Positions 6,922 through 9,975 of a DNA stretch of 10,011 bases are shown piece by piece; position 1 is the first letter of the stretch, and each line of letters opens with the position of its first letter. Below the pieces are notes generated by a model. It was not told the origin of the DNA. It was given only the letters and a program-made list of their open reading frames with translations, and made no database searches. The translations under genes and the position numbers were made by a program. The DNA is from Candidatus Micrarchaeota archaeon (GTDB taxonomy: Archaea > Micrarchaeota > Micrarchaeia > Anstonellales > Bilamarchaeaceae). The DNA is taken from NCBI GenBank assembly GCA_037440825.1, contig JBBITJ010000011.1, forward strand, positions 3,409 to 13,419, in the 5' to 3' direction.

Positions 6922-6974
6922 GAAACCAAAATTTGGTGATTAGTTTGTTTTCGACCCAAATTTCGAGTTTTGGT

Positions 6975-6999
6975 AAAATAATAAAAACAAAAATAAAAA
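6975..6999 (-). terminator. U-rich terminator after groEL
   Basis: Minus strand has several T4-T5 runs directly after the groEL TGA. Confidence 0.55.
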
Positions 7000-8613
7000 T
7001 CAGACGATTATAGTAGTTGTTTTCTCGTCTTTTTCTTTGTCAAAGTCAGTTACTAGCGCTTCTGTTGTCAAGATCATAGATGCAATCGAAGTGGAATTCT
7101 GCAAAGCGTTTCTCACAACTTTCGTCGGATCTATGACTCCTGCTTCGAACAAATCTTCGAAGACGTCTGTGTCTGCGTTGTAACCGAATCTTTCATTTTT
7201 ATGGTCTTTTATCTTTGCTATGATTTCTGCACCTTCTCTGCCAGAATTTGCAGCGATCTGGCGGATTGGCTCTTCCAGTGTTTTTTTCACAATTTCAACC
7301 CCTATTTGCTGGTCTCTTTCAAGTTTTAATTTCTCCAATTCTGCAATAGCCCTGAACAACGTGAGGCCACCTCCAGTTACAACGCCTTCTTCGACAGCAG
7401 CTTTCGTTGCATGCAACGCGTCATCTATTCTCAATTTCTTTTCTTCCAATTCAGTTTCTGTTGTCGCGCCGACTTTGATAACCGCAACACCCCCACCAAG
7501 CTTTGCAAGCCTCTTCTTCAAATCTTCTTTTTTGTATTCTGAGTCTGCAAGTTTAAGCTGACTTTCAATCAGGTTTTTTCTAGCGTCTATATGTTTCTTA
7601 GAGCCTTTTCCCTCGATTATGATTGTCTTTTCTCCATCTATTTTCACTTTTCTTGCGCTTCCTAGCCACGAATCCTCGAATTTATCGAGTTTCATGCCAC
7701 GATCCTCGGAGATTACTTTGCCTCCAGTCAGGATTGCAATATCTTCCAACATCTCTTTTTGTTCGTCTCCAAATCCTGGTGCTTTAACAGCACATACTTT
7801 CAATACACCCCGGATAATATTCAGAACCAATGCAGCCTGTGCATCTCCTTCTATATCCTCGGCTATTATCAAAAGTGGTTTTGATTCTTTGGCTGTTTTT
7901 TCAAGAATTGGGATCAGTTCTTTCATTCCAGATAATTTTTTATCTGTTATAAGGATATACGGATCTTCGAATTCAGCGACCATTTTTTCATGGTCGGTTG
8001 CCATATATGGAGAGACAAAACCGCGTTCGAACTGCATTCCTTCCACAACAGTAAGCGTGGTTTCAAAACCTTTGCCATCTTCAACAGTTATTACACCGTT
8101 ATTCCCTACTTTTTCCATGGCATCTGCGATTAATTTTCCTATTGTTTCGTCATTATTCGCAGAAATTGTTGCTACCTGCGTTATTTTTTCCTTTGTCTTG
8201 ACTTCAGTGCTTTTTGCCTTCAAATACTCGACGACTTTTTTCGTAGCTTTTTCCATGCCTTTTTTAATCTCGACTGGGTTTGCGCCTGCGGCTATATTTT
8301 TTAGCCCTTCCGCCACCATAGAGCGTGCCAGAATTATTGAAGTTGTTGTTCCATCCCCTGCATCTCCTTGGGTCTTTGTAGCAACCTCTCTGATTAGCTT
8401 GGCGCCCATATTTTCGAACTTATCCGTAAGTTCGATTTCCTTTGCAATGGTCACACCGTCGTTGCACATTAACGGGTGTGAAGTCCTATCTAATACAACA
8501 TATCTGGCTTGTGGGCCAAGAGTTATTTTAACGGTATTTGCAACTTTTTCAATTCCGTTCAAAAGAGACTGCCTAGCGTTCTCATCAAAAGTAATTTGTT
8601 TTGCATCAACCAT
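7000..8613 (-). CDS. groEL: Group I chaperonin GroEL (Cpn60)
   Basis: [79 protein letters not shown] and GVIDPTKV. 537 aa. SD AGGTGG overlaps the groES stop. Confidence 0.97.
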
Positions 8614-8621
8614 AAGACCAC

Positions 8622-8894
8622 CTATTCAATTTTTGCCAAAACATCCTTGAAATCAACAAAAACGTGTTTTTCACCATTAATCTCCCATTCATCAGAGCTA
8701 TAACCGCCGTAAATAACTTTGTCACCTGGTTTTACCGGCAATGGTTTTCCATCCTTATATTGCCCTGCGGCTATAACTTCGCCCTCTTTTTTTTCTTCTT
8801 TTGCCGAGTCAGGAAGGTATATCCCTCCAGCAGTCTTATCCTCGCTTTTCTTTGGTTTAATTAATACTCGCTCTCCGATAGGTTGAATCTTCAT
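8622..8894 (-). CDS. groES: Co-chaperonin GroES (Cpn10)
   Basis: [13 protein letters not shown], mobile loop [23 protein letters not shown] and DVLAKIE. SD GAGGTG. Confidence 0.96.
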
Positions 8895-8903
8895 GCCAAC
8901 ACC

Positions 8904-8935
8904 TCTACTCTAGACTCTATCTACTCTAGACTCTA
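8904..8935. repeat. Perfect 16-bp tandem duplication (TCTACTCTAGACTCTA x2)
   Basis: 8904-8919 is identical to 8920-8935 and fills most of the hsp20-groES spacer. Confidence 0.9.
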
Positions 8936-8939
8936 GATT

Positions 8940-9425
8940 TTATTTTACTTCAAGAAGTTTTCTTTTTGATTCCTCAACTTTTAGCTTTGGCACAACAACT
9001 TTTAGAACTCCATCTTTGTATTCTGCGGTTGCTTTTTCAGTATTTACATTATTTGGTAGGCTGAAATGCCGATAAAAGCCAGAGTAATTTCTCTCAAATC
9101 GGTACATTCCTTTTTTCTTGTCTTCATGTTTGCTTTCTGTTTTTGTCTCTGCTTTGACGTCGATACCATTACTGTCCACATTTACCTGAATGTCTTTTTT
9201 ATCTACTCCTGGGATTTCTATTTCAGCAATAATCTCCTTTTCTGTTTCGTAGATATCTGAAACTGGTTCTCGGTATGTGCTTACAACTACATCATTTTTG
9301 TTTGATGCTCTTGGTAGTAAATAATGACTTGAAGGCCCACTACTTTCAAAAAAATTCTCAAACATAGCATCCATCTGATGCTGCATCCTCCTCAGTTCAT
9401 CCCATATTGTGTACCTGTCCTTCAT
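8940..9425 (-). CDS. hsp20: Small heat-shock protein (Hsp20/alpha-crystallin)
   Basis: PVSDIYET..IIAEIEIPGVDKKDIQV, ERNYSGFYRHFSLP, AEYKDGVLKVVVPK and a C-terminal IxI-like LEV. The track's GTG 9434 lies inside SD AGGTG, so ATG 9425 is preferred. Confidence 0.95.
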   Translation of the reverse strand: MKDRYTIWDELRRMQHQMDAMFENFFESSGPSSHYLLPRASNKNDVVVSTYREPVSDIYETEKEIIAEIEIPGVDKKDIQVNVDSNGIDVKAETKTESKHEDKKKGMYRFERNYSGFYRHFSLPNNVNTEKATAEYKDGVLKVVVPKLKVEESKRKLLEVK

Positions 9426-9467
9426 TTTCAACACCTATTATGGTTTGTATTTGAACGATGGTATATA

Positions 9468-9532
9468 CATATAAATTCTTTTAAATCTTTTCATAATTAA
9501 TGAAATTAATTCATACTAACACTATTTAAATT
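9468..9532. promoter_or_regulatory. Divergent promoter: two TATA boxes flanking a candidate operator
   Basis: Minus TTTATATG at 9475-9468 (hsp20) and plus TTTAAATT at 9525-9532 (starting 28 nt before ATG 9553). TTCAT-N5-ATGAA-N5-TTCAT lies between them at 9490-9514. Confidence 0.55.
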
Positions 9533-9552
9533 CTACTATCTTAAATATTTTC

Positions 9553-9960
9553 ATGCCGAGGCAAATTACTCTCATGGAATTGCCAAAACCAAAGCAACCT
9601 AGCCTCTATGGCGACATAGAATGGTTAGGCAATAGTTTTGGATTTTATACTGGCAGGGACACAGAAAGAATCGCATCAAAAGTTTTACACTATTTACTAG
9701 ATGATATCTCTAAAGAAGGACATTGCTCAACAGAGAAAACATCGAATGGTCTCAACATCGAGGTCCAAAGAGTGAATTACCATTTAAGAACATTTATAGA
9801 ATCAGGCTTCTTCTGTAGAGAAAAAAGAATGATAGTCCTGCGGCACGGAAGTGTAAAAGCCGCTGTAGAAGAAATTAGAAAAGATGCCAACCGCATATTC
9901 GATGAACTTTCTATTGTTGCAGAGGAAATTGACAGAGGGCTCAATCTTAAAAACCGTTGA
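9553..9960 (+). CDS. Putative winged-HTH (ArsR-like) transcriptional regulator with C-terminal helical tail
   Basis: STEKTSNGLNIEVQRVNYHLRTFIESG fits an HTH with a VxYHL recognition helix. N-terminal WLGNSFG..RD and the EEIRKD..AEEID tail resemble an archaeal HTH family (recalled, not searched). Confidence 0.7.
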   Translation: MPRQITLMELPKPKQPSLYGDIEWLGNSFGFYTGRDTERIASKVLHYLLDDISKEGHCSTEKTSNGLNIEVQRVNYHLRTFIESGFFCREKRMIVLRHGSVKAAVEEIRKDANRIFDELSIVAEEIDRGLNLKNR

Positions 9961-9975
9961 ATCTCCCATGGTTTC

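Follow-up and report, generated by a model that had tools for sequence, protein, structure and literature searches.

Many Woesearchaeota and Pacearchaeota, and also Methanosarcina, have been described as having both the thermosome and GroEL/ES (PMC8204110). The locus described here lies in a stretch of 10,011 nucleotides (nt), hereafter the window, from a Candidatus Micrarchaeota archaeon. It carries groEL, groES, hsp20, and a divergent regulator gene, beside the remnant of a LAGLIDADG homing endonuclease gene and a split tRNA-Met gene. As in the lateral GroES-GroEL cases of Methanosarcina, Woesearchaeota, and Pacearchaeota, an intact groES-groEL pair is found in a genome with a native thermosome. 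Unlike those cases, the host belongs to the Micrarchaeota, where 0 of 400 other genomes matched, and both the insertion site and its two junctions can be seen. It is reasonable to consider the block as foreign DNA that was joined by illegitimate recombination into an endonuclease gene already hit by a miniature inverted-repeat transposable element (MITE), i.e., ordinary horizontal gene transfer. We regard this explanation as fairly likely.

Parts of the locus resemble other described systems. Window positions 6935-6975 match the end of a 710-nt element of the insertion sequence (IS) family IS1595 in genome G255, and an 82-nt MITE in genome G005. The difference from IS1595 elements and their MITEs is that only one end is present here, without transposase, and that a 3-kb foreign gene set stands in place of the interior. 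In ISEcp1-type mobilization, an insertion sequence moves neighboring genes by using one true end and an alternative end, and rolling-circle IS91 and ISCR elements also capture genes. The present locus likewise has a gene set without recombinase, a genuine IS end on one side, and no clean inverted repeats or duplication. However, it differs in having no attached transposase, no surrogate end above chance, and no second copy. One copy of the IS end has an IS91-type gene nearby, but this locus does not. In DPANN archaea, free-standing LAGLIDADG genes lie at the side of intron-bearing tRNA genes, much as the endonuclease gene or its remnant adjoins the split tRNA-Met here, but in the window the endonuclease is dead and serves as the landing site only. 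Phr and HSR1 are archaeal heat-shock regulators. They resemble the 135-amino-acid (aa) regulator of the window in being small winged-helix proteins beside hsp20 or chaperone genes with a palindrome between divergent promoters, but the latter showed no sequence or family match.

The window corresponds to exactly one scaffold contig (G000:C11:3409-13419), with a 100-N gap on either side. The host genome (G000) is 875 kb in 45 contigs, 95.6% complete, with a guanine-cytosine (GC) content of approximately 0.55. In 300-nt windows, the GC content steps down near 6750-6900, from 0.49-0.63 to 0.32-0.45, and stays low up to the contig end. The low-GC block is made of four intact open reading frames (ORFs), of which three are chaperone genes on the minus strand. 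groEL (7000-8613, 537 aa) was recognized by Cpn60 (1.3e-81) and TIGR02348 (791.8 bits, cut-off 582.1), groES (8622-8894, 90 aa) by Cpn10 (3e-27) and NF001539 (146.6, cut-off 122), and hsp20, an alpha-crystallin small heat-shock protein gene (8940-9434, 164 aa), by HSP20 (PF00011; 3.7e-19, 69.1, cut-off 20.8). After the groEL stop, a T-rich tract (6976-6999, minus strand) was predicted by eye to be terminator-like. The fourth ORF is the regulator (9553-9960, plus strand). The GC scan, the ORFs, and the family matches agree with the original prediction, which had described an AT-rich block with a regulator and divergent hsp20-groES-groEL. Past the 100-N gap, the scaffold has host-like GC. The contig that follows is host-like from the outset and begins with a plus-strand methyltransferase-like fragment, identified by eye, that is unrelated.

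The nearest GroELs were 82-85% identical and, where named, came from Woesearchaeota or Nanoarchaeota; identity to the GroEL of Methanosarcina was 73%. The hsp20 product was 69% identical to those of two related loci (L034 and L035), and the block DNA was 67-76% identical to the same loci, from 9934 down to 6974/6980 only. Thirty relatives of the same order gave no groEL/groES DNA match, and their protein matches were at thermosome level only (24-37% identity). The host has its own thermosome on contig C13. The phylum search comprised 401 genomes including the host, 188 of them at least 90% complete, and no GroEL was found in the 400 others at E<=1e-80. In another study, "GroEL" was reported in approximately 88% of DPANN genomes (PMC8407392). 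That figure probably counts the thermosome under the shared Hsp60 family; otherwise it disagrees with 0 of 400.

A quick IQ-TREE phylogeny was built with 75 rows, i.e., the window and 74 of 80 related loci, leaving out six loci with a match below 520 aa. The GroEL of the window fell in a seven-row clade with L032, L033, L034, L035, L052, and L103 (Shimodaira-Hasegawa-like approximate likelihood ratio test, 100). Two records of this clade are labeled Methanosarcinales, with genomes of 0.9-1.0 Mb. These sequence comparisons show the block as foreign to its micrarchaeal host, as had been proposed, and as coming from another archaeal phylum. The best explanation is a horizontally gained heat-shock locus such as occurs in Woesearchaeota/Nanoarchaeota-type DPANN and in Methanosarcinales.

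The gene order of the window was also found in L034, L035, and L052, with one extra ORF for an ion channel between hsp20 and groES in L034; such an ORF stands at this place in L103 too. The neighbors of the nearest cassettes were ordinary genes that differed by locus, i.e., MoxR/DUF58 (L034 and L035), an ArsP-type permease with a DsbD-like protein (L034), Cdc48 with enolase (L032), and malic enzyme (L033). No recombinase family was matched among the scanned ORFs around them. None of the seven nearest cassette loci had the IS end adjoining, and a short tip matched only at a distance in one of them (L103). A comparison of cassette ends elsewhere had been suggested as a check, and it gave only these ordinary and differing chromosomal neighborhoods without this IS end.

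Beside the endonuclease remnant lies a tRNA-Met(CAT) gene (6637-6778, plus strand), which is split. In the raw region, nothing was found by ARAGORN, with the intron option included, or by Rfam in gathering and E-value modes. Two intron-like stretches, i.e., 6670-6701 (32 nt) and approximately 6732-6765 (34 nt), sit one in the anticodon stem and the other in the T arm. After in silico deletion of both, ARAGORN called tRNA-Met(cat); deletion of either one alone was insufficient. At the corresponding place after alaX, the tRNA-Met(cat) gene of the same-genus genomes G004 and G005 is uninterrupted, and the two conserved halves are contiguous in relatives. The LAGLIDADG-like gene had been described as tRNA-adjacent. 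A tRNA-Met does adjoin it, but the tRNA gene is itself split and undetected in the raw DNA.

The tRNA-Met comparison covered the window (6637-6778) and loci L002, L003, L004, L006, and L126. An interrupted tRNA-Met adjoined a LAGLIDADG gene or remnant in three of three same-genus loci (G000, G002, and G007), and an uninterrupted tRNA-Met stood without an adjoining LAGLIDADG gene in two of two (G004 and G005). In another genus, a LAGLIDADG orthologue (G014, 57% identity) was paired with an interrupted tRNA-Met. The region downstream of tRNA-Met differed among all same-genus genomes compared (G004, G005, and G007). In the spacer between alaX and the tRNA gene, a 12-nt direct repeat of the tRNA 5' part was seen by eye (6523-6534 against 6641-6652), approximately 110 nt upstream of the tRNA.

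The intact counterpart of the interrupted gene was found in the same genus. In G007, a 210-aa LAGLIDADG ORF lies directly after its equally interrupted tRNA, and it passes Pfam LAGLIDADG_3 (29.7, cut-off 22.5) and LAGLIDADG_2 (26.2, cut-off 25). By tblastn of this gene against the window, aa 171-205 matched at 57% identity over 35 aa, and aa 160-176 matched in a second frame at 53% over 17 aa containing a stop. The DNA and family alignments located two lesions: GGA>TGA where the family conserves Gly and, downstream, the loss of 1 nt from a conserved Arg codon. No start codon yields an ORF of at least 40 aa at 6781-6934. By these alignments, the minus-strand flank at 6781-6934, approximately 50 codons, is the C-terminal tail of a LAGLIDADG gene and now a decayed pseudogene.

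This agrees with the LAGLIDADG-like reading that had been proposed for the flank, and G007 supplies the uninterrupted version of the gene that was to be sought in relatives. The same proposal also rested on an in-frame join of the two flanks after deletion of 6922-9975. The frames given do join, but the frame used beside the junction is not the ancestral one. The ancestral frame there reads ..NFGFEPGIYQI*GGKVR, and the Arg-codon deletion then shifts into the frame that had been used. In situ, that minus-strand frame also runs on without a stop into the block over at least 77 codons; therefore, its openness is uninformative. A recent landing had been claimed too, and this finds no support: the remnant already carries a stop and a frameshift.

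LAGLIDADG paralogues were found at 28 loci (L125-L152) in 21 of 80 further genomes from the family, often beside tRNA genes. ARAGORN identified tRNAs (Ala, Ser, Gln, and Ile) in the 1.5-kb flanks of 8 of the 28 loci, several of them approximately 30 nt from the gene, and interrupted tRNA-Met exons were present at four further loci.

The left edge of the block is an IS1595-type end. In the same-genus genome G005, the leuB-leuC spacer contains a stretch that matches window positions 6927-6975 with 87% identity over 49 nt; this copy is an 82-nt MITE-like element with inverted tips. The same tip bounds the 710-nt element of G255, in which both ends are inverted and a 7-nt flanking repeat is present. 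The G255 element encodes a zinc-ribbon and DDE_Tnp_IS1595 transposase in two frames (DDE_Tnp_IS1595 fragment, 48.3 bits, cut-off 27). By similarity to these copies, 6935-6975 (plus strand) was assigned as the outer terminal repeat and subterminal part of an IS1595-family element, i.e., a MITE-like half, with its interior facing the chaperone genes. The outer tip begins at 6935, directly after the LAGLIDADG remnant, where the LAGLIDADG homology ends. Similarity to the G005 MITE ends in the middle of the element at 6975, where the DNA similarity to the groEL loci L034 and L035 (to 6974/6980) begins. The left edge is therefore better placed at 6934|6935 than at 6922.

A 30-nt form of the IS end is present on contig C2 of the host genome, in which no IS1595 transposase was found. 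The IS-end pattern occurred in 4 of the 401 host-phylum genomes, all of the host's family, in none of the five nearest cassette-bearing genomes, and in one of 401 genomes of their phylum. The lone donor-phylum match lies on a 3-kb contig of GC 0.36 that is 100% identical to a contig binned in a host-phylum genome. These two stretches (L120, G290:C12; L153, G663:C50) belong to genomes assigned to different phyla, and their identity reflects either ambiguous binning or a shared element. Genes for an IS91-type Y2 transposase and a metallophosphoesterase lie on them, along with an IS1595 fragment. The IS91-type transposase was unlinked to the other copies of the IS end and to the host genome, and was not considered further. 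An assignment of 6927-6975 as a host-specific terminator or small RNA was dropped, because the stretch proved to be an IS1595-type end. Rfam searches on five loci carrying the IS end found nothing.

The original prediction had taken inverted GAAACCA/TGGTTTC as the ends of the block. Both sequences are present, at 6922-6928 and 9969-9975, but an inverted repeat of at least 7 nt between 41-nt edge windows was reached in 330 of 5000 shuffles, i.e., at chance level. The left copy shares bases with the G-F codons of the LAGLIDADG remnant.

On the right, similarity to donor-type loci extends to 9934 by BLAST and to approximately 9968 by eye. From comparison with these loci and IS-end alignment, 9961-9975 is a junction zone in which donor-like sequence fades, and the right edge is better placed at approximately 9967-9975. 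No inverted copy of the IS end was found in 9850-10011, where the best local score was 12, a value that all 500 shuffles reached and that lies below their mean of 15.9. By eye, five of eight positions agree between 6927-6934 and 9967-9974, i.e., the 8 nt outside the edges; the duplication of the G255 copy is 7-8 bp.

The remaining 36 nt (9976-10011) have host-like GC, and on the minus strand they are a candidate for the LAGLIDADG part that would directly precede the remnant. When read in one frame, the 12 residues of the flank match the position-specific scoring matrix (PSSM) of the family at the position expected, with P 0.005-0.017 in comparison with random genomic 12-mers. In another frame, a run of four residues at that position is identical to the G007 gene (in a post hoc test, P 0.008 without regard to placement and 0.002 at the expected place). 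It is somewhat more likely than not that the right flank continues the LAGLIDADG gene, and the link is suggestive.

An exact scan of metagenome contigs with 24 nt of the right flank gave no match, so neither an extension nor an empty-site allele was found. The flank showed no similarity to the sequence after the regulator in donor-type loci (a MoxR gene). No tRNA-derived repeat was present at the right edge. The genes beyond the gap were not found near the tRNA in relatives. Synteny was also uninformative for the other side: the gyrA neighborhood differs, and the G007 nitroreductase is absent from the host genome. An 18-nt identity of the last bases of the contig with contig C5 lies in an unrelated intergenic place and was judged to be chance.

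Contiguity was examined in sequencing run X1, the probable source sample, by Logan contigs, i.e., a second assembler on the same data. These contigs hold 97% of the sampled words of the window. Their depths were 16.6 (6000-6972), 19.5 (6948-9459), 23.4 (9471-9981), and 8.8 and 16.9 for two variants (9952-10011). Neither a joint nor a loose end was seen. The contigs break at small variant bubbles, which fit differences between strains: the bin 6938-7071 has extra depth, and variants occur at 9430-9500 (three) and at 9952-10011 (two). The 25-nt overlap between two Logan contigs is unique in the genome. Read coverage across the junctions had been named as a check, and the assembled X1 contigs do cover both junctions at similar depth. 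Two other runs (X2 and X3) contained next to none of the stretch, which carries no information on habitat. X1 contains two to three sequence variants of the control region (9430-9500) and the right flank (9952-10011), with depths of 4-17; therefore, several strains carry the block.

We infer the following order of events. An IS1595-family MITE would have transposed into the dispensable endonuclease gene at approximately codon 159-161, and the gene would have decayed, gaining the stop and the frameshift. A foreign piece of approximately 3.0 kb would then have been joined by illegitimate, microhomology-type recombination. One junction would lie in the middle of the MITE (approximately 6975) and the other approximately 10-15 nt past the regulator stop codon, with the other half of the MITE removed.

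Several points weigh against this explanation. The order in which the MITE came before the cassette is itself a reconstruction. A contig with the IS end is identical in both phyla; therefore, the IS end could have come with the cassette. In the right flank, the PSSM-supported frame and the frame with the four-residue run are mutually exclusive, with 12 residues in all. The DNA-level alignment of the flank to the endonuclease gene gave P 0.11, and the expected placement was not the top of 1198 placements scanned. The motif-bearing first approximately 160 codons of the endonuclease gene, with the two LAGLIDADG motifs, were not found anywhere in the assembly. The support from X1 consists of contigs only, from what is probably the sample of the genome itself. 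Finally, the only GroEL among 401 phylum genomes, at a contig end with 36 nt beyond it, has the look of a mis-join.

A transposon-like module was weighed against this. An IS1595-family transposase acting in trans would have used the true left end at 6935 and a surrogate right end at approximately 9960-9967 to carry the cassette into the endonuclease gene. A genuine IS1595-type tip does abut the target gene where the LAGLIDADG homology stops, with its interior facing the cassette, and the element family is present in the host family and on the contig also binned in the donor phylum. The bases after the regulator stop match the right tip of the element at six of seven positions, and the octamers outside the two edges agree with each other at five of eight (by eye; the chance was estimated, not computed, at approximately 6%). 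However, these right-tip bases also follow the regulator stop in L034 and L035 and are probably donor sequence, and the score of the best inverted copy of the left end in 9850-10011 was below the shuffle mean. The host genome gave no IS1595 transposase, and no second copy of the unit was found. The seven nearest cassette loci lack an adjoining end, and the five nearest cassette genomes lack the pattern. The stop of the MITE homology in the middle of the element fits a break inside a pre-existing MITE. Such transposition is considered unlikely. The original prediction, a mobile module moved in trans, is not supported, with one IS end, no inverted partner, no clear duplication, no transposase, and no second copy. 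The wider form of this idea is slightly less probable still, i.e., a non-autonomous "chaperone transposon" in which a single IS1595-type end, a surrogate end, and a transposase in trans would move a regulated chaperone module between DPANN phyla, landing in tRNA-side homing endonuclease genes.

The low-GC stretch could also be a chimera, wrongly joined or binned from a co-occurring Woesearchaeota-type genome. The sharp GC step, the position at the contig end, the uniqueness among 401 phylum genomes, the breaks of the assembly graph at 6948-6972 and 9982, and the IS end on a low-GC contig binned in two phyla agree with this. However, the second assembler reproduces both junctions at depths in line with one another (16.6, 19.5, and 23.4), its breaks resemble strain bubbles, and the Logan overlap is unique. 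The last 36 nt return to host-like GC and fit the interrupted gene better than chance, and the scaffold continues host-like. A chimera is thus improbable, to much the same degree as the chaperone transposon. We consider it more doubtful again that the block is the edge of a larger tRNA-side island, e.g., an integrative element, with its integrase and other end in the gap. The adjoining tRNA gene, the variable region past it across the genus, the assembly break directly after the block, and another low-GC island of the host genome with an integrase-like fragment, identified by eye, would suit such an island. Against it stand the host-like GC of the last 36 nt and their resemblance to the interrupted gene, the absence of a repeat of the tRNA 3' part at the right edge and of an integrase in the window, and the host-like start of the next contig. 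Illegitimate joining into the MITE-hit endonuclease gene is therefore preferred. Taken as a whole, the earlier observation stands for the block and its genes and fails for the repeat-based ends and the in-frame join. Its interpretation is retained for the LAGLIDADG flank, the foreign block, and the block's own regulator, and finds no support for the recent landing and the module mobilized in trans.

The regulator of the block (135 aa) belongs to an apparently unnamed winged-helix family. No Pfam or NCBIfam family was above cut-off (HTH_24, 14.5 bits against 21.9). In the structure model (predicted local distance difference test, 93), a winged helix is followed by a long C-terminal helix. Its structural neighbors were generic MarR/ArsR-type folds, the best Foldseek matches being of MarR type (E 5.6e-3), and the best PDB sequence match had an E of 1.3; neither search gave a specific relative. 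Homologues with 38-66% identity are placed divergently beside groES-groEL or hsp20 in 36 of 80 related loci, including Methanolobus, other Methanosarcinaceae, and DPANN genomes. The host has its own paralogue on contig C26, with 26% identity. The cassette regulator is closer both to the groEL-linked copies (60-66%) and to those in a different family of the same order (36-47%).

The control region between the divergent genes (9435-9552) contains a near-palindrome at 9502-9512 with arms GAA.T / A.TTC, approximately 40 nt upstream of the regulator start. The motif GA..T-N-A..TC was found at a similar distance in 19 of 37 regulator-groES(L) control regions, compared with 2.45 on average and 8 at most in shuffles; the pattern was defined once the data had been inspected, and many loci among them are interrelated. 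From this motif comparison, we infer that the palindrome may be an operator between the two promoters, by which expression of the block would be regulated. The claim of self-contained regulation is borne out to the extent that the block has a regulator of its own together with a conserved palindrome. In the literature outside subscription journals and supplements, no paper was found on this regulator or on GroEL in Micrarchaeota.

Other features were found aside from the block. An ORF of 154 aa in the window (4878-5342, minus strand) matched Arrestin_N at 29.3 bits, above cut-off, and Arrestin_C at 25.3 bits, below cut-off, which is a weak match and unusual for an archaeon. Further low-GC islands are present in the host genome. 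By eye, the low-GC region C9:1250-2500 has a zinc-ribbon membrane protein beside an apparent C-terminal fragment of an integrase, with a native hsp20 nearby. Contig C43 (3280 nt, GC 0.35) has a Gp37-like ORF and a Nep1-like gene, also by eye.

The existence of a new kind of mobile element does not follow from this locus. Its meaning lies in a junction-resolved transfer between phyla, in which a genome-reduced symbiotic archaeon received an entire protein-folding module with its regulation. The host phylum otherwise seems to be thermosome-only (0 of 400 other genomes), and the module would supplement the native thermosome and Hsp20 with a group I chaperonin and a further small heat-shock protein, under its own switch. 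The dispensable selfish gene, previously hit by a MITE, would be a landing place where foreign DNA can be received without cost. The conserved winged-helix regulator and its palindrome travel with archaeal groESL from Methanosarcinales to DPANN, and they are a candidate heat-shock switch of these operons.

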